DNA of 60,725 nt from Parcubacteria group bacterium (GTDB taxonomy: Bacteria; Patescibacteriota; Minisyncoccia; UBA6257; JACRHW01). The position numbers and the translations under genes are program-made. The notes under the pieces are model-generated. The model was not told where the DNA came from. It saw nothing but the letters and a program-made list of their open reading frames with translations, and ran no database searches. Position 1 is the stretch's first letter; the number at the start of each line of letters is the position of its first letter. Below are positions 10,484 through 60,135 of this stretch, piece after piece. Location: NCBI GenBank assembly GCA_016217555.1, contig JACRHW010000008.1, positions 1 to 60,725 on the forward strand, in the 5' to 3' direction.

Positions 10484-10603
10484 GGCTTACGCATTCGGCA
10501 CATTACTTCGTCAAATGCTGTGGTACTCGACGCAGTACTTCTTGTGTACAGCTTACTTCGTTCCTCGCGTTTTCCTCGTACTGCACTCGAATGCATAAGC
10601 CTT
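10482..10603 (+). repeat. R2 long-hairpin element, copy 1, directly after the lepB stop
   Basis: Outer stem AAGGCTTACGCATTCG / CGAATGCATAAGCCTT and inner hairpin GCAGTAC-N7-GTACAGC (10532-10552). Conserved blocks are shared with 12719-12836. Followed by T8 (10607-10614). Confidence 0.8.
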
Positions 10604-12718: not shown

Positions 12719-12836
12719 AATTTACGTATTTGGCGTATTTCTTCGTCAAGAGCTCTGGTGCTCGACGCGATAGTATCTGACTATCGCTTACTCCGCTCCT
12801 CGCTTTTTCCTCGAACTCCATCCAAATACATAAATT
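12719..12836 (+). repeat. R2 long-hairpin element, copy 2, directly after the rpsU stop
   Basis: Outer stem AATTTACGTATTTGG / CCAAATACATAAATT and inner hairpin GCGATAGT-N5-ACTATCGC (12767-12787). Shares the blocks CTTCGTCAA..GCT.TGGT.CTCGACGC and GCTTACT.CG.TCCTCGC.TTTTCCTCG with copy 1. Confidence 0.8.
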
Positions 12837-12846
12837 CTAAATAATA

Positions 12847-15105: not shown

Positions 15106-15212
15106 TACGAACAAAGGATACTAATATACGAATCCATGCGAATGATACGAATGGTTACGAATACGAGTTGAGACTATTCGTATTGATTTGTATCATTAGT
15201 ATAATTCGTATA
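15100..15212 (+). repeat. R3 TACGAAT-array element upstream of ftsZ
   Basis: TACGAA(T/C) or near variants start at 15106, 15127, 15137, 15146, 15156 and 15162. Inverted ATTCGTA is at 15176 and 15204. 15126-15165 matches the reverse complement of 20853-20892 at 38/40. Confidence 0.8.
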
Positions 15213-15228
15213 TTTGTATGTTAATCTT

Positions 15229-17834: not shown

Positions 17835-17893
17835 TTTTGACGATTTGGGGGTTGTATGCCCCTCGAAACCCGCTCCTGTGAGCGGTTTTTTGT
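17835..17893 (+). repeat. R4 59-bp direct repeat containing a terminator hairpin (left copy)
   Basis: ttttgacgatttgggggttgtatgcccctcgaaacccgctcctgtgagcggttttttgt matches 20679-20737 at 57/59. It contains CCGCTC-ctgt-GAGCGG plus T6. Confidence 0.9.
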
Positions 17894-18002: not shown

Positions 18003-19820
18003 ATGGATAAAACAAAAGAAATAGTTTCTAATCTCTTACAAAACATTGTTCGTGTTTTTAAATTATCTTGGGAGATTGATTCTAGATTGGTTTTTCTCTA
18101 TTTCTTCACATCTGCGTTGGGGGCTATTTTTCCGATCATTGCCGCATATCTTTTTAAGATTATGCTTGACAACGTTGTAAGCAACACCTCTATTGCGAAT
18201 TTACAAAACTCAATTTCTTCAATCATTGTTCTTATTTTGGCGGGTTATTTTTTCATGAAATTGTTGGGGGCTGCGTTGTATTGGGGTTTGAATGTAAACT
18301 ATTTAGATAAACTGTTGAATAATAGGTTGCTTCTCGGCTTGGATCGCCGTTATATTAAAAAGATGTCGAGTTTAGATATTGGCCATTTAGAAAATTCTGA
18401 AATTCAAAATTTGATCACTCGAGTGAAGTTTACCTACATGGAACATGTGCCGCAATTTTTGAAAAAATGGAATAATATTTTTCGTGATTTAATTGGTATT
18501 ATTTCAATTTTTATTGCTCTTAGCGCTTATAATATTTGGATTCCTATTGCTATACTTCTAGTTTCGCTTCCAAGGTTCTACTTTAAATTTAAACTGGGCA
18601 AAAGTGTTTACTCTGTTTATGCGGCCTCCAATCCGGAAACTAGGAAAATGTGGTATATAACGGATTTGCTAACAGAGGAAAAATCAATTGTTGAAACCAG
18701 GATTTTTCAATCTCAAAGTGCTTTATTTGGTCGTTTGACTAAACTTCAAGATTCGATTTTGAATACAACCCAAAAGCCACTTGCCCAATATAGTCGTACT
18801 TTGGTTTTGTCGCCTATTTTTGAAAATTGCTTAGCTTTTTTATTAATCTATTGGATGTTGCCGAATGCGTTGACCGGAGCATTGACGGTTGGGGCCATTA
18901 CTTTCATTGTTAGCGCCATGGAACAGTTAAGAAGTAATATTATTTCTGGTACTTCAAACTGTGGTGATTTGTATGGACATAATCTATTTATCAATCCATT
19001 TTTTGAATTGATGGCGTTGCCCAAATTAATTAAAGAGGTGGAAAACCCACAATTTCTTCAAGAGTTAAAACCGCCAAAAATTGAATTTAAAAATGTGCAT
19101 TTTTCCTATCCTAACAGCAGTAAAAAAGTTTTAAATGGAGTTTCGTTTGTTATTGAACCAGGGCAGAGTCTTGCCCTTGTTGGGGTTAATGGCGCCGGCA
19201 AGACTACGATAATTAAACTGCTTTGTCGTTTTTATGACGCTGATAGTGGAGAAATTATAATAAACGGTATTAATATAAAAGATTTAAGTCTTGCCAACTG
19301 GTACAGTCATCTCGGAACCCTTTTTCAGGACTTTGTGAAATACAAATTTACTTTTAGGGATAATATAATGCTGGGGGCTCCGCAAATTCAGGATGAAAAT
19401 AGAATGAAAGAAGCGGCATTACAGTCTGGCGCTTACGAGTTTATTAATAAATATGATCGAAATTTTGACCAGATGTTGAGTAAGGATTTTGAAGAGGGTG
19501 AAGAGCTGTCCGGTGGACAGTGGCAAAAGTTGGCGATTGCTAGAGCATTTTACCAACAAGCTCCAGTTTTGATTTTAGATGAGCCAACCAGTGCTATTGA
19601 TGCGGAATCTGAGTATGAGATTTTCCAAAACTTAGAAAAAGTCTATAAAAACAAAACTTTAATTATGGTATCTCATCGTTTTTCCACCGTGCGCAATGCT
19701 AGTAAGATTGTAGTTATTGAAGATGGCAAAATAATTGAGTCAGGAACGCATCGGGAACTGTTAAAAGATGATGGTAAGTATGCTCAAATGTTTAAAATTC
19801 AAGCCAAGGGTTATACATAA
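18003..19820 (+). CDS. ABC exporter, fused permease/ATPase (MsbA/bacteriocin-exporter type)
   Basis: Six predicted N-terminal TM helices, Walker A GVNGAGKTT, signature LSGGQWQKLAIARA, Walker B VLILDEPTSAID and an H-loop SHR. Confidence 0.9.
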   Translation: MDKTKEIVSNLLQNIVRVFKLSWEIDSRLVFLYFFTSALGAIFPIIAAYLFKIMLDNVVSNTSIANLQNSISSIIVLILAGYFFMKLLGAALYWGLNVNYLDKLLNNRLLLGLDRRYIKKMSSLDIGHLENSEIQNLITRVKFTYMEHVPQFLKKWNNIFRDLIGIISIFIALSAYNIWIPIAILLVSLPRFYFKFKLGKSVYSVYAASNPETRKMWYITDLLTEEKSIVETRIFQSQSALFGRLTKLQDSILNTTQKPLAQYSRTLVLSPIFENCLAFLLIYWMLPNALTGALTVGAITFIVSAMEQLRSNIISGTSNCGDLYGHNLFINPFFELMALPKLIKEVENPQFLQELKPPKIEFKNVHFSYPNSSKKVLNGVSFVIEPGQSLALVGVNGAGKTTIIKLLCRFYDADSGEIIINGINIKDLSLANWYSHLGTLFQDFVKYKFTFRDNIMLGAPQIQDENRMKEAALQSGAYEFINKYDRNFDQMLSKDFEEGEELSGGQWQKLAIARAFYQQAPVLILDEPTSAIDAESEYEIFQNLEKVYKNKTLIMVSHRFSTVRNASKIVVIEDGKIIESGTHRELLKDDGKYAQMFKIQAKGYT

Positions 19821-19880: not shown

Positions 19881-20657
19881 ATGCTTAATCTAAAAAATGT
19901 TACGTTATTGGGTCTCGATTGCGTTGATCTTGATAGGCTTAAGGTTGCAAGGGATATTTGTGTCAAAGATATTGAATTTGGTGCGGTCAAGCTTTTATCC
20001 TCAATAGAGTCCAGTGATAATAATGTAATCAAAATCGACAAAGTAGATTCAATCGAAAACTATTCGGAATTTATGATTAAAAAACTGAATGATTATATTC
20101 AGACTGAGTTTGTTTTAATTTTTCAACACGATGGTTTTGTTTTAAGCGCAGATAACTGGCAAGGAGAGTTTCTGAATTATGATTATATAGGGTGTCCTTG
20201 GATCGGATATTTTAAAGAAAATCCTGATCATAATGTCGGTAATGGAGGGTTTAGTTTGCGCAGTAAAAAGCTTTTGGAAATTTTAGCCAATGACGAACAA
20301 ATTGAGCTGGGCCAACCCGTGGATGGTCTTATTTGTCGCCAATATCGAGATTATTTGGAAAAGAAAGGCGTAAAATTTGCTCCAGAAGAAATTGCAGGCA
20401 TATTCGCAATTCCTGACATTATGAGGCAAAAAGATATAGAATTTACTAATCAGCAATACCGGGAATATCTGAAAAAACAAGGAATTATAATTGACTCTAA
20501 AGAAAAAGAACTAGCATATCAAATACCAGAAGCTTATGAAAATGGTGACTTGAATTGGACTAATCAATTTGGTTTTCATTATTTAACCAAAGGACATTTG
20601 ACCAAGTGGTTAGAACAAAATCCCAAATATAATGGTTTAATCAAGGCAGAAGACTAG
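19881..20657 (+). CDS. DUF5672-like (glycosyltransferase-like) protein
   Basis: FVLIFQHDGFVL....W...FL.YDYIGCPW......VGNGGFSLRSKKLLEIL resembles the DUF5672 signature as I remember it. AT-rich. Confidence 0.55.
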   Translation: MLNLKNVTLLGLDCVDLDRLKVARDICVKDIEFGAVKLLSSIESSDNNVIKIDKVDSIENYSEFMIKKLNDYIQTEFVLIFQHDGFVLSADNWQGEFLNYDYIGCPWIGYFKENPDHNVGNGGFSLRSKKLLEILANDEQIELGQPVDGLICRQYRDYLEKKGVKFAPEEIAGIFAIPDIMRQKDIEFTNQQYREYLKKQGIIIDSKEKELAYQIPEAYENGDLNWTNQFGFHYLTKGHLTKWLEQNPKYNGLIKAED

Positions 20658-20678: not shown

Positions 20679-20737
20679 TTTTGACGATTTGGGGGTTGTA
20701 TGATCCTCGAAACCCGCTCCTGTGAGCGGTTTTTTGT
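20679..20737 (+). repeat. R4 59-bp direct repeat (right copy)
   Basis: Matches 17835-17893 at 57/59. Begins 21 nt after the stop of 19881-20657. Confidence 0.9.
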
Positions 20738-20805
20738 TGGGAAGTTATCCACATTTACTCCACAGGTGAACGGGGCGATAGTAGAAGTGTCGAACACAAA
20801 CCATA

Positions 20806-20897
20806 CCAATATACGAATGATACTAATACTACAAATCAATACGAATATCGTACGTATTCGTAACCATTCGTATCATTTGTATGGATTCGTATATTAG
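20806..20897 (-). repeat. R3 TACGAAT-array element upstream of nrdJ (inverted relative to 15100-15212)
   Basis: TACGAAT at 20812 and 20840; ATTCGTA at 20856, 20866 and 20885. Both arms match the reverse complement of the ftsZ-proximal copy with 2-3 mismatches per roughly 40 nt. Confidence 0.8.
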
Positions 20898-20923
20898 TAT
20901 TTTATATTTACCTAACGTTATAT

Positions 20924-34318: not shown

Positions 34319-34389
34319 AATATCGTCCCCGTGGCGGTTTTTATTATCCCATAAAATCTACAGGCGGAGGCTCGTGGAGATTTGAGGAT

Positions 34390-34427
34390 TGTACAAATGG
34401 CACTATGCGTGTTATTTTTTGTTTAGT
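34390..34427 (+). promoter_or_regulatory. R5 palindromic promoter/hairpin module, copy a
   Basis: TGTACA-N17-TATTTT overlapping the hairpin AAATGGCAC-tatgc-GTGTTATTT (two G-T pairs), followed by TTTGTTTAG and AAAGGAGG. Confidence 0.6.
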
Positions 34428-34461
34428 CTTATTAAAAATCAGAGAAAGGAGGAGATATCTA

Positions 34462-34773: not shown

Positions 34774-34787
34774 GGTGGAAGTGGATA

Positions 34788-34826
34788 TTTACAAATAGCA
34801 CGCGCAGTGTTATTTTTTGTTTAGGT
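34788..34826 (+). promoter_or_regulatory. R5 module, copy b
   Basis: TTTACA-N17-TATTTT with hairpin AAATAGCAC-gcgca-GTGTTATTT, then TTTGTTTAGGTTGTTGAAAAGGAGG. Confidence 0.6.
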
Positions 34827-34847
34827 TGTTGAAAAGGAGGAAAGAAG

Positions 34848-36877: not shown

Positions 36878-36905
36878 ATGTTTGGAAAAGATAGTATCGT
36901 AGACC

Positions 36906-36945
36906 TATACAAATAGCACTGCGTGTGCTATTTTTTGTTTAGGTC
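36906..36945 (+). promoter_or_regulatory. R5 module, copy f
   Basis: TATACA-N17-TATTTT with a perfect hairpin AAATAGCAC-tgcgt-GTGCTATTT, then TTTGTTTAGGTCGTTGA. Confidence 0.6.
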
Positions 36946-36980
36946 GTTGATTTTTGAAAGAAGGAAAGGGGTGGCTTTTT

Positions 36981-37763: not shown

Positions 37764-37796
37764 AGAGGAGATAAAGCGTTGTTTTCACACATAGTC

Positions 37797-37836
37797 TGTA
37801 CAAATGATACATGGTGTGCTATTTTGGCTTTGTTCC
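37797..37836 (+). promoter_or_regulatory. R5 module, copy h (most diverged)
   Basis: TGTACA-N17-TATTTT with a weakened hairpin AAATGATAC-atggt-GTGCTATTT, then ..CCTTGAAAAGG...AAAAAGGAGG. Confidence 0.5.
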
Positions 37837-39549: not shown

Positions 39550-39594
39550 CTCGACAAACTAGCACCATGTGTGCTAGTTTTGTTTTAGGTCATT
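39550..39594 (+). promoter_or_regulatory. R5 module, copy l
   Basis: 45 nt identical to 40588-40632. TCGACA-N18-TAGTTT with a 12-bp hairpin ACAAACTAGCAC-catgt-GTGCTAGTTTTGT (one bulged T). Confidence 0.65.
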
Positions 39595-40587: not shown

Positions 40588-40632
40588 CTCGACAAACTAG
40601 CACCATGTGTGCTAGTTTTGTTTTAGGTCATT
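40588..40632 (+). promoter_or_regulatory. R5 module, copy n
   Basis: Identical 45 nt to copy l, followed by CTTAAAAGGAGG and ATG 40653. Confidence 0.65.
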
Positions 40633-42067: not shown

Positions 42068-42208
42068 AAACCAAACCGTTGGAAATGTCCAGCGGTTTTT
42101 TGATTCATCCAATGCGCAATGCGAATCTGATGTTAGCAAGATTGCATATAGAGATATCTCTGCTATTCTTGATCTAGGAACTTAACAATTCGAGGACGGG
42201 AGTGTGTA

Positions 42209-42703
42209 ATGATACAACACAACTGGAAAGATCTCCTCCGTATCGCTTATATAATCGCTAAGCAGAGTCATGACCCTTCGACGCAGAATGGTGCGTTGTT
42301 AATTAATGTTGATGGTTCTATTCTTGGCGACGCGTGCAATCAGTTTCCTCGTGGAGTAAAAGAAACTCCAGAGCGTTGGGAACGACCATTGAAGTATAAA
42401 ATCATCGAACATGCAGAACGTAATGTCATTTTTCATTTTGCAAAACTTGGTATTCCTACCGATGGTCTTACGATGGTGTGTCCGTGGGCAGCGTGTGCGG
42501 ATTGCGCTAGGGCTATTATTCAGGCTGGTATCGTGAGGCTTGTGATTCACAGACAAGCAGGCGATCGTTCTCCAGAATTTTGGCAAAAGGAAATTGATGT
42601 AGCATTTGAAATGCTTAAGGAGACGGGCGTGGAAATTGTTGCCTATGATGGAGAGGTTGGTGTGAAGGGTCTTTTGCACAGTGACCAGCTTTGGAATCCA
42701 TAA
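42209..42703 (+). CDS. dCMP (deoxycytidylate) deaminase family zinc enzyme
   Basis: HAERNVIF (H-A-E) and CPWAACADCARAIIQAGI (PC..C). Confidence 0.8.
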   Translation: MIQHNWKDLLRIAYIIAKQSHDPSTQNGALLINVDGSILGDACNQFPRGVKETPERWERPLKYKIIEHAERNVIFHFAKLGIPTDGLTMVCPWAACADCARAIIQAGIVRLVIHRQAGDRSPEFWQKEIDVAFEMLKETGVEIVAYDGEVGVKGLLHSDQLWNP

Positions 42704-42801
42704 ATTCGTAACCCCTAGATAATTCTAGGGAGTTTTTATTTTTGACAGGCATGTTATAATAAAATAAAGATAAGGGGTTAAAATTAAAAAATATAAATAC
42801 T

Positions 42802-43071
42802 ATGCATCGAGTAAATACACATAAATTGGGTCTTGTTGTGGGTAGTTTCGCTGGGCTGGTTCATCTTGTTTGGTCATTGTTCGTGGCATTGGGATGGGCG
42901 GGGTCACTTGTTGGTTTTATCCTTAGGCTTCATTTTATGAGTCATCCTTATATGGTTTTACCATTTAATCTTGTTACTGCAGGGGAGCTTGTTGCGGTGG
43001 TCTTTCTTGTGGGGTATATTGGCGCTACTATTGCAGGAACTATTTGGAACAAGGTTTACATAGGTAAATAG
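42802..43071 (+). CDS. Small membrane protein (89 aa)
   Basis: Three hydrophobic segments. Weakly resembles 54725-54991. Confidence 0.4.
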   Translation: MHRVNTHKLGLVVGSFAGLVHLVWSLFVALGWAGSLVGFILRLHFMSHPYMVLPFNLVTAGELVAVVFLVGYIGATIAGTIWNKVYIGK

Positions 43072-43143
43072 GGCCGCCCTTTACAGCATAATTGTTCTGT
43101 GCTATCATTTTATTAGTTCATTAGGAAATGGAGGTAATACTAA

Positions 43144-43410
43144 ATGGATCCCGAACATCATCACTGGTTCTGGCGGATTTTGGATGGTTTCGTATCAAAT
43201 CCTGATAAGTCCAGTTTTGTTGCCAAGAAGGGTATATTTGATCTCGAGATCATGATTCGTGTTGCGCGTGAGGATAAGGTCCTTTTTACGCCAGAGGTAT
43301 TGGGGGCGCTTAAGGTCATTTTGACCGCCAAGACAGGGGTCTCGAATCTTATGATTTATCTGGAGGATAGTGAGTTCGCTAGGATGAAAGAGGCGCAATC
43401 GTACATGTAG
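43144..43410 (+). CDS. Hypothetical protein (88 aa)
   Basis: ORF after GGAGG. Followed by the terminator GCTCCGA-ggatt-CGGGGC plus T-run. Confidence 0.4.
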   Translation: MDPEHHHWFWRILDGFVSNPDKSSFVAKKGIFDLEIMIRVAREDKVLFTPEVLGALKVILTAKTGVSNLMIYLEDSEFARMKEAQSYM

Positions 43411-43548
43411 TATGGGTTGGATGGTGCTCCGAGGATTCGGGGCTTTTTAATTTTTTGTTTGATTCCACCAGAAATAGCAACTATGGTAGTCGAACTACCA
43501 TAGTTGTGCTACGTGCCTTCGTGGGTCCTAATGCGGTTAGCGGTCGGT

Positions 43549-43577
43549 TTGACTTATTAACTCGGATGTGCTATGAT
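43549..43577 (+). promoter_or_regulatory. csp promoter
   Basis: TTGACT-N17-TATGAT. This leaves a leader of about 40 nt before ATG 43622. Confidence 0.6.
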
Positions 43578-43621
43578 GGACACAATAAAGAGATGTCGTC
43601 GAGTTTCTTAATAAAAAAACA

Positions 43622-43825
43622 ATGAGTATGCAAGGAGTTATTAAAACTCTTACCGATAGAGGATTTGGATTCATTTCTCGCGAAGGCGAGACAAAGGATC
43701 TCTTTTTCCACTCTAATGAACTCAAGGGTGTTGCATTTAACGAACTTAAGGTTGGTGATGCAGTTACTTTCGAAGTTGTAAACGGTGAGAAAGGGCCTAG
43801 CGCAGTGAACGTTTCACGCGCCTAA
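43622..43825 (+). CDS. csp: Cold-shock protein (CspA family)
   Basis: GVIKTLTDRGFGFISREG..DLFFHSNEL with RNP1/RNP2 motifs. 67 aa. Confidence 0.93.
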   Translation: MSMQGVIKTLTDRGFGFISREGETKDLFFHSNELKGVAFNELKVGDAVTFEVVNGEKGPSAVNVSRA

Positions 43826-43840
43826 GCACTAAAAAAATAA

Positions 43841-43876
43841 AAAACCACCCAAGCTTTGGTCAAGGTGGTTTTTTAT
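43841..43876 (+). terminator. Intrinsic terminator
   Basis: AAAACCACC-N14-GGTGGTTTTTT. Confidence 0.75.
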
Positions 43877-43934
43877 TTTGTGGAAGAATGTACAAACACA
43901 ATGGAGTGTGTTATTCTTATGGTCATTACTTATC

Positions 43935-45401
43935 ATGGCAAACGATAACATTATATTACGGTTCAATAAGGTTTTTTTTGAATTTGGCCATACAAAGCCC
44001 ATTTTGAATGAGGTGGATTTTTCATTGCGCCGAGGAATGAAGGTGGCGCTTATGGGACAAAATGGTGCTGGGAAAAGTACCATTTTTAATCTTATTACAG
44101 GAGTAAAGACTCCTGACGAGGGAATGATCTCGATGGAGGATGGTATGAGTATTGCAATTGGCAAGCAGGTGATCCCTGTCGACAAAATGGATGGCACCGT
44201 GAAGGAGTTTTTTGAGAGTTGTTTTTCAAAGAAGGTGTACGATATTGATCCGCGTATCGAAAAGATACTTGAAGTAGTGCACCTCGTGATTGCACCAGAG
44301 AGAATTGTGAGAACCTTGTCCGGTGGCCAGCAGGCACGACTTTTGCTTGCTTCGGCACTTATTCAGGAGCCCGATCTTCTTTTACTCGATGAGCCGACCA
44401 ATAATCTTGATAAGGAGGGGCTTCTCCATCTTACCCAGTTTCTTGTTGAGTATAAAAAGACATGCATTGTTATTTCACATGATGCGGACTTCTTAAACGC
44501 TTTTACGAGCGGGGTGTTGTATCTCGATGTCTTTACTTATAAAGTTGAACAGTATGCAGGGAACTATCTTAACGTGGTGGCAGAAATTACTGCGCGTATC
44601 GAGCGTGAACGAAGAAAAAATATGCGTCTTGAGAAGGAGATTCAGCATCGTAAGGAGCAGGCGGGTTTTTTTGGACAAAAAGGGGGGCATATGCGTGATG
44701 TGGCGCGTAAAATGAGAGAGAAGATAGAAACACTCGAGGAGGATAGGGTTGATATGCGTGAGGAGGATAAGATGATTCGACGTTTTGTAATTCCACCACA
44801 AGAACATCTTTCGGGGAAAATAATTACAATTACTTCAGTGCCCATAATGGAGAAGGGGAAGCTTGCAAAGAAAAAGATAGCACTTACTTTGAAACCAAAA
44901 AACCATCTTCTTGTTACGGGTCCGAATGGTATTGGGAAAACAACCGTATTGCATAACATCGCTATGGGTACGGCATCTGGGGTAGAGATCGAGAAGGGGA
45001 TACGAGTCGGATACTATCAACAGGATTTTTCTACGCTTGATCCAGAGAGGACGGCATATCATTCGCTTGAGGTTGCCATAGGAAATGAAGGACGTGAGGA
45101 GACTATTCGATCAGTGGCGGCTGGATTTTTGTTGGGGCCTGCTGTGCTAAAAAGTCTTGTAGGTAATCTCTCTGAGGGGCAAAAGGGGCTTCTTGTTTTT
45201 GCAGGGCTTGTTTTACAGCGCCCAGGGCTTCTTATCCTCGATGAGCCAACTAACCACATTAACTTTAGACATTTGCCGGTTATTGCCGAGGCGCTTAATA
45301 AATATGATGGTGCAATGATTTTGGTGAGCCACATCCCAGAATTCGTAAAACAAATCCGCATCGATGAGACTCTCGACCTCGAAGCGTTGATTAAAAAGTA
45401 A
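43935..45401 (+). CDS. ABC-F family ATPase (two ABC domains, no TM)
   Basis: Start at ATG 43935. GQNGAGKST/LSGGQQARL/LLLDEPTNNLD and GPNGIGKTT/LSEGQKGLL/LILDEPTNHI are separated by a basic, charged linker. Confidence 0.88.
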   Translation: MANDNIILRFNKVFFEFGHTKPILNEVDFSLRRGMKVALMGQNGAGKSTIFNLITGVKTPDEGMISMEDGMSIAIGKQVIPVDKMDGTVKEFFESCFSKKVYDIDPRIEKILEVVHLVIAPERIVRTLSGGQQARLLLASALIQEPDLLLLDEPTNNLDKEGLLHLTQFLVEYKKTCIVISHDADFLNAFTSGVLYLDVFTYKVEQYAGNYLNVVAEITARIERERRKNMRLEKEIQHRKEQAGFFGQKGGHMRDVARKMREKIETLEEDRVDMREEDKMIRRFVIPPQEHLSGKIITITSVPIMEKGKLAKKKIALTLKPKNHLLVTGPNGIGKTTVLHNIAMGTASGVEIEKGIRVGYYQQDFSTLDPERTAYHSLEVAIGNEGREETIRSVAAGFLLGPAVLKSLVGNLSEGQKGLLVFAGLVLQRPGLLILDEPTNHINFRHLPVIAEALNKYDGAMILVSHIPEFVKQIRIDETLDLEALIKK

Positions 45402-45408
45402 AACCGTC

Positions 45409-45571
45409 TTTGATCTGTAAGACAGATGTTTCTCACCCGTTCGGATACCCAGCGGTATCCTCACTCTGTCCTCCGGCGCTTCGTTGTCAATCCAATTCGT
45501 TTCACTCAGGATTGACAACACCCTGCTCCGCGCCTGCGGAATGGTTCGAAACACCTATCTTACAGATCAAA
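45409..45571 (+). repeat. R6 element, copy A: 122-nt core inside its own 14-bp palindrome
   Basis: Core 45432-45553. Flanking arms are TTTGATCTGTAAGA (45409-45422) and TCTTACAGATCAAA (45558-45571). Confidence 0.9.
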
Positions 45572-45641
45572 AACATGCTAATTTTAACTAAGGTCAAAAG
45601 CAGGTTTCTTTGAATAAAATTGAGGATTTATTGAAATAACC

Positions 45642-46742
45642 ATGGCATATCTAATAATTGCACTTATCGTAATTGGTTATATTATTTATGGCATTTTTAG
45701 TCTTTTTAAAAAGGGCGGTGAGGTGGTAAAAGAGGTGTCGGTTCGTATGGCGCTGGATAAAAACAAAACTTTGATCGAACGTAATCAGGGCATCATCGAT
45801 AGGTGTCTCAGTGAGCTCTACGCGGGCGATCGATCATATTATATTGATAATGAGACAAAAGATTGTATTAGTGAAATTGCTAAAGTGGAAGGTCGGTCAG
45901 ATTTAATTCCGAAATATCGAGAGTGGTTATCACAATGGCAAACAAGATCAGATGTTTCCAGGGACTGGCTTGAATTAAAAGACTATATAAAAGAAAAATT
46001 TCAAAAACACCATAAAGAACTTTTACAAAAACAAAAGGTACAAGAAGAACAATTGGGACGGGAAGAAAAGGAGCGACAGGATAAAGAGGGTCAAAAGTTT
46101 TTTGAGAAGAATAAAGATTTGATTAACAAGTTTTTAGAAATTACGGAGAGAAAAGTATCTATAATCGATGATTATGGTGATGAGAATTGGAATGCTCTCT
46201 CGGAAGAAATCAACGCTTGTGTAACCAAAATAGCAAAGCGCAGTGGTGTTAGTGATGGGGATATTAAAGACTTTTTTAAAAAAGATTATACATGGAAATT
46301 GGGTGAAGAATATGGATGGCTTAGAGAAAAATTAGATAAGGTTTTTAGAGAATATCATAAGGTACAAAAAGAAAAACCTGCCAACAGTACAGAGTTAAAA
46401 AATCTATCGGGTGTTGAATTTGAGGTCTGGATCTCGAAACTTTTAAAAGAGAATGGTTTTGATGATGTTCGTGGTACACCTGCAACTGGGGATCAGGGAG
46501 CTGATTTGATTGCAAAGAAAGATGGAAAAATCATTATTATTCAGGCGAAAAGATATCAAGGCAGTGTTGGAAATAAGGCAGTGCAGGAAGTTATTGGCGC
46601 AGTTCAATTTTATCGTGGCGATGAGGGTTGGGTAATTACCAACTCTACATTTACACCCTCGGCGAAAGCTCTTGCTCAGAGAAGTGATGTTAAATTGATT
46701 GATGGGAAAATGTTAGAAAGTCCAGAAAAGTATCTCCATTAA
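45642..46742 (+). CDS. Membrane-anchored coiled-coil protein with a C-terminal Mrr-type restriction endonuclease domain
   Basis: TM helix AYLIIALIVIGYIIYGIFSLF and a K/E/Q-rich middle region. C-terminus reads GDQGADLIAKKDGKIIIIQAKRYQGSVGNKAVQEVIGA..GWVITNSTFTPSAKALA..KLIDG (D...QxK core of Mrr_cat). Confidence 0.75.
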   Translation: MAYLIIALIVIGYIIYGIFSLFKKGGEVVKEVSVRMALDKNKTLIERNQGIIDRCLSELYAGDRSYYIDNETKDCISEIAKVEGRSDLIPKYREWLSQWQTRSDVSRDWLELKDYIKEKFQKHHKELLQKQKVQEEQLGREEKERQDKEGQKFFEKNKDLINKFLEITERKVSIIDDYGDENWNALSEEINACVTKIAKRSGVSDGDIKDFFKKDYTWKLGEEYGWLREKLDKVFREYHKVQKEKPANSTELKNLSGVEFEVWISKLLKENGFDDVRGTPATGDQGADLIAKKDGKIIIIQAKRYQGSVGNKAVQEVIGAVQFYRGDEGWVITNSTFTPSAKALAQRSDVKLIDGKMLESPEKYLH

Positions 46743-46744
46743 AA

Positions 46745-47449
46745 ATGGATATATCTACTTTGCGATTAGCCACAGATGGTGATGATTTTGAACGAACTTA
46801 TTGGGATTTGTTCATAAAAGATCAATTTCCAAGTTATGAAACTTTTTGGTTAAAATTTGTTGTGCCAATAACAAACCGGTCTAAAAATGTTCATTTTAAA
46901 GATAATTTAGAACTAGCTAAGATTGGGAAATCAGAATCTGATGTTTGTATTGGACAATTTAACTATTCAATATTGAGGCATCTGATACGTTGTTTTGAAA
47001 TCAGAAAGGTAATTGATGATAGCTCATGGATAGATCAATTCGATTTAACACTAGAAGGAATGACTAGACTTGCGAGCTGTCATGATATAGCGTGTGAGTT
47101 GCTTGAAAGATTAAAGAACCCAACAGTTTATGAGGCATTTACTATTGAAAGTGGAAAAAAGGTAAAAGCAAAATTGCGAAAAGACGATAAGAATCCACTC
47201 AAATTAATAAAAGACTATCGTAATAATCTTGTTCATGGTAGGTTGCCGCCATCAATAGTAGATGGGAGTAGATTGTGTCTTCCTGATATTGGAAAAGAAT
47301 TTCTATATTTGGATTGGAGAAAAACAACTGATTTTCACAATCTCAAATTGGAGGAATATAAAGAAAATTTCTTTCACGCTTCAAGTGTATTAGAAAGAGC
47401 GTGGAATGAAACGGCGGGTTACCTAGAAAACAATTGGAAAAATTTATAA
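46745..47449 (+). CDS. Orphan protein with an Rx4H (HEPN-like) motif
   Basis: 234-aa ORF starting 2 nt after the previous stop. KDYRNNLVHGRLPP fits R-x4-H. Very AT-rich (17/60 G+C in line 46861-46920). No other motif recognised. Confidence 0.5.
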   Translation: MDISTLRLATDGDDFERTYWDLFIKDQFPSYETFWLKFVVPITNRSKNVHFKDNLELAKIGKSESDVCIGQFNYSILRHLIRCFEIRKVIDDSSWIDQFDLTLEGMTRLASCHDIACELLERLKNPTVYEAFTIESGKKVKAKLRKDDKNPLKLIKDYRNNLVHGRLPPSIVDGSRLCLPDIGKEFLYLDWRKTTDFHNLKLEEYKENFFHASSVLERAWNETAGYLENNWKNL

Positions 47450-47474
47450 AAGATGATTATGGCTAACGTTTTTT

Positions 47475-47631
47475 GAATTACAAAATGTCTGTTCCGAACC
47501 ATTCCGCAGGCGCGAAGCTGGGTGTTGTCAATCCTGAGTGAAACGAATTGGATTGACAACGAAGCGCCGGAGGACAGAGTGAGGATACCGCTGGGTATCC
47601 GAACGGGTGAGGAATATATGTTTTGTAATTC
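47475..47631 (-). repeat. R6 element, copy B (inverted): same core inside a different 11-bp palindrome
   Basis: Core 47490-47611 is the reverse complement of 45432-45553 at 119/122. Flanking arms are GAATTACAAAA (47475-47485) and TTTTGTAATTC (47621-47631). Confidence 0.9.
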
Positions 47632-47650
47632 GAAATTGTAAAATTAAAAT

Positions 47651-48625
47651 ATGTTTATTGATGAAGTTACTATTAATGTGAAGGCGGGGAAGGGCGGCAA
47701 GGGTGCCGTTGCTTTTAATAAGATTAAGATGGCGCTTGGACCAACGGGTGGGAATGGGGGGAATGGAGGAAATGTTTATTTGGAGGCTATTGGTGATCTT
47801 GGCGCTCTTCGGCAGTTTCGCATGAAGAAGGATTTTAATGCAGAGGACGGACGTGATGGACGCGATGCGTTTCGTGATGGGCACGATGGAGAGGATCTTA
47901 TCCTTTTGGTCCCACGCGGGACGGTAGTACACAATCTCACCACGGAGACAGAACATGAGCTTACTAAGATTGGCGAACGCCTTCTTATTATAAAAGGAGG
48001 CTATGGTGGTAAAGGTAATTTTCTCTATCGTTCATCGACGAACACCTCTCCTACTCAATTTCAACCAGGGTTGCCGGGAAGAGAGTGTACGTTACGACTC
48101 GAATTGAAGCTTATTGCTGATATTGGTCTTGTTGGATTACCAAATGTAGGGAAGTCGAGTTTTATCAATGAAATGACAAACGCGCAAAGCCCTGTGGCTG
48201 ATTACGCTTTTACTACACTCGAACCACATCTCGGGGCGTATTATGGCCTTATTCTCGCTGATATTCCTGGGCTTATCGAAGGTGCCTCATTGGGAAAGGG
48301 GTTGGGGATTAAGTTTCTTCGTCATGTAGAACGTACGGGGATTCTCTTTCACTTCATCGATGTAAACAGCGAAGATCCTGTAAGGGACTACAAAGTAATT
48401 CGAAAAGAGCTAGGCGCCTATAACCCACTTCTTTTAGAAAAAAAAGAGTATATTTTTGTGACCAAAACCGATACCGTAGATGAGAAACGTGTTAAAGAAG
48501 TTGTTAAGAAACTTAAGACGCACTGCAAAGACAGAGAAGTAGAGGCTATCTCTATTCACGATCCGGAGAAAATGGGAATAATGAAAGAATTACTCAACCG
48601 TATTAAAGGTGATCTTAATATATAG
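47651..48625 (+). CDS. obg: GTPase Obg/CgtA
   Basis: MFIDEVTINVKAGKGGKGAVAF, GGNGGNGGNVYL and the G1 motif GLVGLPNVGKSSF. Confidence 0.93.
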   Translation: MFIDEVTINVKAGKGGKGAVAFNKIKMALGPTGGNGGNGGNVYLEAIGDLGALRQFRMKKDFNAEDGRDGRDAFRDGHDGEDLILLVPRGTVVHNLTTETEHELTKIGERLLIIKGGYGGKGNFLYRSSTNTSPTQFQPGLPGRECTLRLELKLIADIGLVGLPNVGKSSFINEMTNAQSPVADYAFTTLEPHLGAYYGLILADIPGLIEGASLGKGLGIKFLRHVERTGILFHFIDVNSEDPVRDYKVIRKELGAYNPLLLEKKEYIFVTKTDTVDEKRVKEVVKKLKTHCKDREVEAISIHDPEKMGIMKELLNRIKGDLNI

Positions 48626-48654
48626 TAGTTAAATAGAATTTTTATGTATTAGGG

Positions 48655-59887: not shown

Positions 59888-59898
59888 GAGAAGTTTCA

Positions 59899-60008
59899 CC
59901 CCACCCTAGACTAAAGCTCATCTCCAAGGGGGAGACTTTTACAACCCCCCTAGCGTAGCGATAACACCTGACTCCCCCTTGAGGATGATCGTTTAATCTT
60001 GGGTGGGG
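59899..60008. repeat. Long imperfect inverted repeat downstream of copA
   Basis: CCCCACCCTAGACTAAAGCTCATCTCCAAGGGGGA (59899-59933) pairs with TCCCCCTTGAGGATGATCGTTTAATCTTGGGTGGGG (59973-60008) across a 39-nt loop. Confidence 0.7.
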
Positions 60009-60135
60009 CTACTCAACAGCCTCATTGAAGGAAAGGCCTACTATATATTAAAATACTATGCGGTCGCATAGTGGCGTAGATTTTTTTAGTGTGTTATTTT
60101 GTATTCAGGACTTTGTAAAAAGGAGAAATAACAAG

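Follow-up and report, generated by a model that had tools for sequence, protein, structure and literature searches.

The 60,725-nucleotide (nt) contig JACRHW010000008.1 of a Parcubacteria group bacterium (assembly GCA_016217555.1), the whole of which is referred to here as the window, carries two open reading frames (ORFs), ORF1 and ORF2, between the ABC-F type ATPase gene abcF and the GTPase gene obg, and these two ORFs are enclosed by long inverted repeats. We find that the two repeat arms are complete, oppositely oriented copies (copy A next to abcF and copy B next to obg) of a dispersed, structured intergenic repeat of about 170 nt, and that they are not specific to the cassette that they enclose. 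Our verdict is that the locus is an accessory-gene islet in a repeat-rich spacer, and neither a conserved two-gene system nor a transposon with terminal inverted repeats. We consider it likely that three independent things, namely the repeats, an insertion and two unrelated genes, have come together by coincidence in one intergenic hot spot of this Patescibacteria (Parcubacteria/Paceibacteria-like) genome.

The first-pass annotation of this DNA, which was made from the letters alone, had reported a near-perfect 122-bp inverted repeat around two co-oriented ORFs, and both statements are exact. The arm at 45432-45553 matches the reverse complement of 47490-47611 at 119 of 122 positions (mismatches at 45524, 45528 and 45549), and exactly two plus-strand ORFs, separated by 2 nt, lie inside the arms according to the ORF coordinates. 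Ungapped extension gives 155-nt arms, 45419-45573 and 47470-47624, that are 90% complementary and whose longest uninterrupted identity is 92 nt. A 40-nt core probe finds only these two sites in the 60.7-kb window, with 0 expected from 100 shuffles. That annotation had missed that each arm folds on itself, with its own internal inverted symmetry and its own closing stem: GATCTGTAAGA.../...TCTTACAGATC in copy A and a different one, GAATTACAAAA.../...TTTTGTAATTC, in copy B. Compared with dinucleotide shuffles, the fold z-scores of copy A are -8.9 on the plus strand and -10.4 on the minus strand. The cores of copies A and B are 97.5% identical, and the outer 11 bp of their closing stems show five differences per arm, all of which are compensatory. 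Since the outer closing stems differ in this compensatory manner, the two arms are not one duplicated terminal repeat.

Outside the window, a 23-nt word from the core occurs at nine loci in two GTDB species-representative metagenome-assembled genomes (MAGs), namely JACRHX01 (Parcubacteria, groundwater) and CAYIOQ01 (labelled Saccharibacteria). By blastn, these nine loci contain 11 copies, at least six in the JACRHX01 loci and at least five in the CAYIOQ01 loci. A second, independent pattern retrieved 25 metagenome contigs (Hainich groundwater; JGI Ga0172368-71 and Ga0194131). A covariance model of the element, trained on 13 copies, recovers 32 copies, 30 of them beyond the two in the window, mostly full-length and scoring 97-191 bits. 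The family is present several times per genome in Patescibacteria MAGs and metagenomes, and all copies are intergenic. About half of them share a TTTGAATCACAAAACAT-type closing stem, and the remaining stems are unrelated. Rfam 15 has no family that matches either copy from the window: scans of the whole window at gathering thresholds and of the locus at E<=10 return only two tRNAs and noise. No target-site duplication is evident among the element copies, and the fetched stretches of genome revealed no cognate transposase, whether RAYT or another. The stem consensus, sought as an insertion sequence end outside the elements, was found nowhere in 391 kb of fetched loci. One pattern from the element core has 0 matches in phage contigs, and a literature search returned no description of such repeats in the Candidate Phyla Radiation (CPR)/Patescibacteria.

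In the architecture common to the copies, a stem of about 23 bp encloses a core that is conserved in sequence and forms three inner hairpins. The sequence of the closing stem varies between copies with its pairing retained, and the interior is conserved at 85-97%. In a 33-row alignment, 92.7% of cells are standard pairs, versus 76% in shuffled alignments and 36-43% with slid partners, and both-sided changes occur in 35 of 53 pairs (264 cells); 0 of 500 shuffles reach any of these pairing and covariation measures. Most of the covariation sits in the closing stem (30 pairs). The P2 hairpin covaries too, whereas the P3 hairpin (GTTGTCAATCC/GGATTGACAAC) hardly changes apart from the length of its loop. 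Compensatory stem changes are also seen between orthologous copies in related genomes (L015b and L024; L010 and L035), which argues that hairpin formation is under selection, although Watson-Crick covariation as such reads the same for RNA and for single-stranded DNA. Either in mRNA or in single-stranded DNA, the repeats would probably work as hairpins. As paired copies, they could incidentally allow RecA-dependent inversion or the formation of double-stranded RNA in read-through transcripts, and given the length of their uninterrupted identity, inversion between copies would be physically possible. A terminator scan shows neither copy acting like an intrinsic terminator on the plus strand. 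Two spurious ORFs run across copy A (45213-45554 on the minus strand, 113 aa; 45410-45613 on the plus strand, 67 aa), and comparable ones overlie copies at other loci, e.g. 2581-2871 in L010. Those through copy A are taken as non-coding because indels among the copies break the frame.

The placement of the copies relative to genes was counted over independent sites, with orthologous and duplicate contigs merged. The usual start of the element is 0-12 nt past a stop codon. At 11 sites it begins within 6 nt of the stop codon of the same-strand upstream gene in the ORF-gap table; there the closing stem proper begins 0-12 nt past the stop codon, and the next gene typically follows after a gap of about 100 nt. 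Copy A, which abcF's stop codon precedes by 4 nt, is placed in a similar manner. At six further sites the element is on the same strand as the upstream gene and farther off, at five it is antisense between co-directional genes with its 5' end 10-25 nt from the next start, and at two it occupies a divergent spacer. Copy B resembles the group of five, being 20 nt past the stop codon of ORF2 and 13 nt ahead of the obg start. Two copies bracket abcF in the related contig L012, and two bracket a 362-aa ORF together with a 594-aa GTPase-like ORF in L015; thus, bracketing by two copies is not peculiar to mobile cassettes.

The history of the locus was approached through L012 (CAYIOQ010000055), which is collinear with 42155-48633 of the window and aligns over 42155-45574 and 47639-48633 at 75-89% nucleotide identity. 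The shared gene order is a 164-aa ORF (window 42209-42703), a small ORF, csp, abcF and obg. From abcF, one alignment continues across the entire element as far as 45574, and homology returns at 47639, which is 12 nt before the obg start. abcF is about 82% identical in nucleotides to L012 2089-3602, and obg 82.5% to L012 3925-4919. In L012 the distance between abcF and obg is 334 nt, with no ORF1 or ORF2 between them, and L012 3603-3772 is the positional orthologue of copy A. Between the homology breakpoints, the window has 2064 nt and L012 has a 152-nt unrelated hairpin unit ('Z'). Since L012 has abcF, an orthologous left copy and obg without ORF1 or ORF2, the cassette together with the right copy is an indel and the left copy is older. 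The earlier suggestion that the block is an insertion between abcF and obg is therefore borne out at the level of an indel. That the repeats form part of the cassette is not: the family is dispersed, its left copy has an orthologue in a relative without the cassette, and ordinary genes are bracketed elsewhere. The csp-abcF spacer contains a copy in L012 but none in the window, which makes the family insertion-polymorphic. Unit 'Z', which stands in L012 where the window has the cassette, is GC-rich.

The orthologous copy in L012 (L012b) shares the outer closing stem of copy A, TTTGATCTGTA.../...TACAGATCAAAAAC. Its core, of a different subfamily, has only 80% identity to that of copy A. Conversely, the core of copy A is 95-97% identical to non-orthologous copies in the genome of L012, in which abcF and obg are about 82% identical to those of the window. 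This comparison of core and housekeeping identities points to conversion or replacement of cores among copies, and such a process would confine the identity of copies A and B to the core. We infer that gene conversion or the recent spread of one core subfamily best explains the near identity of the two cores together with their unrelated closing stems, rather than duplication of a terminal repeat.

From these observations, the following sequence of events may be proposed. Copy A would already have followed abcF when the cassette was still absent. The short spacer between copy A and obg would then have been replaced by ORF1, ORF2 and copy B, or have received them as an insertion, and the islet was probably gained by horizontal transfer. 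Copy B, beyond the islet, is a second copy of the family, and its orientation is the less frequent one.

In order to examine whether ORF1, ORF2 and the element are linked, 98 fetched loci (707 kb) were searched with tblastn. None of the 98 contains homologues of both ORF1 and ORF2, and none of the element-bearing loci contains a homologue of either; the covariance model likewise finds the element absent from the fetched loci that carry ORF1 or ORF2 homologues. The homologues of ORF2 occur in six neighbourhoods (with a GIY-YIG gene, HTH_17, DUF1905, tyrosyl-tRNA synthetase, an ABM-domain gene and an efflux operon), and those of ORF1 in three contexts, followed downstream by unrelated small ORFs or a DpnI-like gene. 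The DNase-plus-RNase module proposed in the first-pass annotation is not upheld by these separate contexts. Furthermore, the two proteins match no single described defence system in PADLOC-DB 2.0. The 223-aa and 168-aa ORFs located 3' of ORF1 homologues were considered as relatives of ORF2 and rejected (hhalign probability below 1%, no notable Rx4-6H), and a link between ORF2 and bacA (L001 versus L049) was ruled out, the downstream proteins being unrelated. In the neighbourhood ftsH ... recG ... pilM, shared by two related genomes, L001 has a GIY-YIG gene and an ORF2 homologue, and L021 has an ORF1 homologue and an unrelated 223-aa ORF. The interval from recG to pilM resembles a further variable hot spot at which such accessory genes are exchanged.

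ORF1 had been read as a protein with a transmembrane (TM) helix, a K/E-rich stretch and an Mrr endonuclease core, and the Kyte-Doolittle profile, the AlphaFold2 (AF2) model and Pfam all agree with this. A single N-terminal hydrophobic segment reaches a 19-residue Kyte-Doolittle maximum of 2.65 at residues 4-22, and residues 106-160 are 58% K/E/R/Q. The AF2 model (pLDDT 86.9) has helices at 2-37 and 107-156, the latter being a single long one, and an alpha/beta C-terminal domain. Mrr_cat (PF04471) matches residues 252-358 with an E-value of 1.2e-31 and 109.6 bits against a cut-off of 21. The PD-(D/E)xK core is intact: D288, Q301 and K303 are invariant across ORF1 and its homologues (17 homologues aligned), and Foldseek matches the nuclease domain to MspJI (4f0p_B; E 3e-4, prob 1.00) and AF1548 (1y88; E 8e-4, root mean square deviation 2.4 over 100 columns), followed by Cdn1, Hjc and AspBHI. 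Judged by its sequence and predicted fold, ORF1 is a true TM-anchored nuclease of the Mrr/MspJI PD-(D/E)xK type. The lysines that directly follow the TM helix suggest, by the positive-inside rule, that the nuclease domain would be cytoplasmic.

Outside the nuclease domain, ORF1 differs from known enzymes of this type. Residues 1-250 contain no Pfam or NCBIfam domain, and no Mrr_N, SRA or other DNA reader was recognised in them; a sequence search of the PDB with ORF1 gave no match, and the matches in PADLOC are limited to the nuclease domains of ZorD, PDC-S02 and mREase_IV. Because no reader domain is recognisable, ORF1 appears to be Mrr-like in its catalytic domain but not a canonical Mrr. With the type IV enzymes of the Mrr/MspJI type it shares the C-terminal PD-(D/E)xK domain and its D...QxK signature (GDQGADL...IIIQAKRY), as well as the Pfam and structural matches. 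Unlike them, it has a TM helix, a charged helix of about 50 residues, a family-specific middle domain and no recognised reader, and its family is large and concentrated in Patescibacteria. More than 1000 homologues were found at E<=1e-5, mostly from Patescibacteria (the names include Yanofskybacteria, Nomurabacteria, Patescibacteria and Omnitrophica), and the family keeps the N-terminal TM helix, the middle motif ERKVSxIDDYGDENW and the nuclease signature. The source gene call for ORF1 (P0033) is 331 aa long and begins at Met36, which affects the stretch 45642-45749; the 366-aa version starting at 45642 is more likely because homologues conserve the upstream TM helix. On viral contigs Mrr_cat domains are common, and only one match extends past the nuclease domain, namely L051 (IMGVR_UViG_3300037258_001212, predicted viral), in which 4001-4849 matches residues 68-355 of ORF1 at 41%. 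Thus, nucleases of the ORF1 family may travel on phages or prophages. We propose that ORF1 would act as a solitary protein that most likely cuts incoming, possibly modified, DNA at the membrane from the cytoplasmic face, and that it may serve defence or DNA uptake or salvage in these episymbionts.

ORF2 had been singled out for the motif YRNNLVHG, found at residues 158-165, as a possible HEPN RNase. Members of the HEPN superfamily carry the signature Rx4-6H, usually R-[NHQD]-x-x-x-H; the RNases of this superfamily were reportedly described by Anantharaman et al. in 2013. The ORF2 family has 32 close homologues and 660 cluster representatives at E<=1e-3, and a broad alignment of 75 members (mean column identity of 19%) shows Y31, W35, D114, Y158 and R159 to be invariant and N160 and H164 to be conserved at 90% or more. 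The AF2 model (pLDDT 92.7) is mostly helical, with long helices at 64-92 and 95-124 and with the motif in helix 153-163. This part of the earlier proposal, i.e. a conserved motif with an invariant arginine, stands; membership of the superfamily is weakly supported, as the Pfam matches to HEPN models are sub-threshold (HepT-like 0.048, HEPN_Apea 0.048, AbiU2 0.039, RiboL-PSP 0.046), the best of them being MAE_28990 at 4.2e-4 in one of the 75 family members, which is still below the Pfam threshold. In Foldseek the best PDB match has an E-value of 0.48, and nothing falls below 0.4 in the PDB or BFVD; the HEPN structures 1jog, 3o10, 7bxo and 6qzt appear among the noise at E-values of 1.5-4. No precomputed Pfam domain is attached to the 64 family members for which this was looked up, all of which are named 'hypothetical protein'. 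ORF2 has no usable match in PADLOC, NCBIfam or PHROGs, sequence searches of the PDB with narrow and broad profiles gave no match, and no relatives of its family were found on viral contigs.

As in the HEPN RNases (HepT, AbiU2, RiboL-PSP, Apea and MAE_28990-like), ORF2 is all-alpha, with long paired helices and a conserved R-N-x-x-x-H, and its family gives scattered weak matches to five HEPN Pfam models. Unlike typical HEPN proteins, it has no adjoining MNT antitoxin or other usual partner, and it has about 60 additional N-terminal residues, among which Y31 and W35 are the invariant ones, and a beta-hairpin insert past the motif. HEPN-like catalysis through the RNxxxH motif is plausible, and we lean modestly towards it. 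ORF2, too, would act as a solitary protein, with the motif probably forming a HEPN-like RNase centre.

A rival reading of the locus is that the repeats and the genes moved as one unit, like a composite transposon or a cassette flanked by miniature inverted-repeat transposable elements (MITEs), into the abcF-obg spacer by means of a transposase encoded elsewhere. The near-identical inverted cores do flank precisely the foreign-looking block, presence/absence polymorphism between related genomes implies that the family is or was mobile, and a hexamer, GTAAAA, occurs outside both ends (45397-45402 and 47639-47644). The hexamers, however, lie at unequal offsets in AT-rich DNA, and one of them includes the abcF stop codon. 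Copy A, with the same outer stem, sits at the same place in the cassette-free contig L012 and hence was not delivered with the cassette. In addition, the outermost stems differ (GATCTGTAAGA versus GAATTACAAAA), so that the true ends have no terminal inverted repeats in common, no homologue of ORF1 or ORF2 at the other fetched loci is flanked by the element, and no transposase gene adjoins the block. We regard joint transposition as quite improbable. A misjoined contig, in which the cassette would not truly lie between abcF and obg, deserves a thought as well, since the core exceeds common assembly k-mers and is nearly the same from copy to copy, and even from one genome to another. A public contig, L033, is indeed chimeric within the element, its 5' closing arm and its 3' half coming from different copies. 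In the window, each copy has mutually complementary 5' and 3' closing arms (model positions 1-170, 184-192 bits), so there is no switch within either copy. The junctions between copies and cassette are unique sequence, and homology with the relative stops exactly at the element boundaries on both sides. An artefact of assembly is accordingly the explanation to which we give hardly any credence. As for L033 itself (Hainich contig ERZ1292623.79208, about 1299-1468), it is 99% identical to L012 from the 3' half onward (abcF-obg spacer and obg), with the 5' closing arm from another copy; copies may have recombined here, or reads may have been joined wrongly at the repeat during assembly.

A functional alternative is that ORF1 and ORF2 are the DNase and HEPN RNase effectors of a dedicated two-component defence or abortive-infection system, regulated by the repeats through an invertible switch or through complementary RNAs whose pairing in read-through transcripts would insulate or silence the toxic genes. 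The spacing of 2 nt suggests co-expression, both proteins have nuclease-type motifs, the nuclease domain of ORF1 resembles those of ZorD, PDC-S02, type IV restriction endonucleases, Avs4 and Cdn1, and a transcript running from abcF to obg would contain the two copies complementary over 155 nt. Yet the pair is not conserved (0 of 98 co-occurrences, with variable neighbours of both families), ORF2 has no PADLOC match and would be a candidate HEPN protein only, the element flanks housekeeping genes elsewhere and is present at about 30 loci that lack ORF1 and ORF2, and no recombinase gene is adjacent. We therefore think such a system improbable, and favour an islet of two unrelated genes that met the repeats by chance. 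Several observations weigh against this preference or parts of it. The ORF1-ORF2 spacing would also fit co-translation of a functional pair in this particular genome. The indel boundary falls exactly at the outer end of copy B, and with two copies per 60.7 kb, a random second copy just beyond the foreign block has a chance of a few per cent; given this position, copy B may have come along with the cassette, or insertions may be drawn to the elements. The polarity of the indel, i.e. gain here as opposed to loss in the relative, rests on one relative and on composition. The HEPN assignment of ORF2 comes without a significant profile or fold match. As for the strand of action, the sense strand is at most sites the C-rich and worse-folding one: all 32 copies fold better as the complement, with a mean advantage of 13.4 kcal/mol, and A-C mismatches are more numerous than G-U. 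The results from mismatch counts and from folding both strands conflict with the orientation bias to genes.

Among known repeats, the element is comparable to REP/BIME, ERIC, Correia (NEMIS) and BOX/RUP elements and MITEs, which as commonly described are also about 100-200 nt long, non-coding, multi-copy and intergenic. Repeats of these types likewise form a long hairpin, often lie just past stop codons in either orientation, are polymorphic between relatives, are sometimes clustered and are prone to recombination or assembly chimeras. Unlike them, the element has ends that vary in a compensatory manner, i.e. no conserved terminal inverted repeats, together with a conserved interior and three further hairpins, and it shows no target-site duplication, identified cognate transposase or Rfam family. 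With composite transposons and invertons the locus shares two inverted, near-identical sequences around a gene block of about 1.9 kb; unlike in those, one repeat is older than the block, both belong to a genome-wide family, and there is no adjoining transposase or invertase and no convincing target duplication. An analogy to integron attC sites was rejected, as the copies are not direct repeats that follow the individual ORFs and do not fit the R-box consensus, and one to retron msr/msd was rejected for want of a reverse transcriptase.

The repeat family is the most novel part of the locus, given its strong covariation and its absence from Rfam, and its set of traits is unusual: a conserved interior, ends that drift and yet remain paired, and adjacency to stop codons. 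As a tentative speculation, it might represent an undescribed class of CPR structured elements with a constrained three-hairpin core and a freely co-varying stem, acting after stop codons as an RNA module of the 3' end (linked to translation termination, or serving transcript protection or processing) or as a hairpin-dependent single-stranded DNA mobile element with a new insertion mechanism; the shared cores would then offer portable homology for swapping accessory genes like ORF1 and ORF2 into housekeeping spacers. For annotation, the locus indicates that long inverted repeats around foreign-looking genes of Patescibacteria need not signal a transposon or an invertible switch, and that any gene can end up between hairpin-closed repeats in these small genomes, where assemblers can be misled by them. 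The locus also adds members to two large uncharacterised accessory families, the ORF1-type, very common in Patescibacteria, and the ORF2-type with RNxxxH and about 660 cluster representatives.

Table 1. Features of the abcF-obg interval, with window coordinates
Feature	Position	Strand	Evidence or content
abcF, ABC-F type ATPase	43878-45401	+	Pfam ABC_tran x2 (5.4e-43) and ABC_tran_Xtn
Element copy A, complete	45406-45574	+	cmsearch 191.5 bits, model positions 1-170; core 45432-45553
Segment without counterpart in L012	45575-47638		blastn homology ends at 45574 and restarts at 47639
ORF1, 366 aa	45642-46742	+	TM helix, charged helix, middle domain, Mrr/MspJI-type nuclease domain
ORF2, 234 aa	46745-47449	+	all-alpha family without annotation, YRNxLxHG (Rx4H) motif; candidate HEPN-like
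Element copy B, complete	47469-47637	-	cmsearch 183.7 bits, model positions 1-170
obg, GTPase	47651-48625	+	GTP1_OBG 8e-44, MMR_HSR1 1.7e-21

The features of the interval are listed in Table 1, in which the Pfam matches agree with the earlier naming of the two flanking genes. The segment without counterpart in the relative consists of a spacer of 67 nt, the two ORFs and copy B. ORF2 had been noted as AT-rich, and it is compositionally atypical: its G+C content of 0.326 (z -2.2) is the lowest among the 46 long plus-strand ORFs of the window, and that of ORF1, 0.361 (z -1.3), is the fourth lowest. No transposase or recombinase/invertase gene adjoins the block among the window ORFs searched with Pfam, a tRNA/tmRNA scan finds nothing near the locus, and promoter and terminator scans of 45000-48000 give counts no higher than shuffles.

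The window contains further repeats of a related kind, with at least three hairpin-closed intergenic repeat families seen in all. At least two other such families are common to the window and L012; together with unit 'Z' of L012 they occupy 59890-60015 on the minus strand, 10487-10598 and 12719-12839 in the window and 1964-2088, 560-681 and 3785-3925 in L012, and the families are clustered next to each other. A second pair of palindromic, TACGAAT-rich units of about 100 nt is found at 15118-15220 and 20802-20900, 91-96% complementary, one just upstream of ftsZ and the other upstream of a class II ribonucleotide reductase gene. Between these units are two of the lowest-G+C ORFs of the window, 18003-19820 (ABC ATPase) and 19881-20657 (DUF5672). 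In addition, a 59-nt direct repeat of 97% identity (17835-17893 and 20679-20737) ends in a GC hairpin and a T-run, i.e. a duplicated terminator-like module after two genes. Finally, terminator-like hairpins with conserved flanks (CAAATAGCAC...GTGCTATTTTTTGTTTAGG) recur after successive short genes at 34383-34434, 34781-34832, 36899-36950, 37796-37825, 39550-39594 and 40588-40632, two copies being 100% identical over 45 nt.

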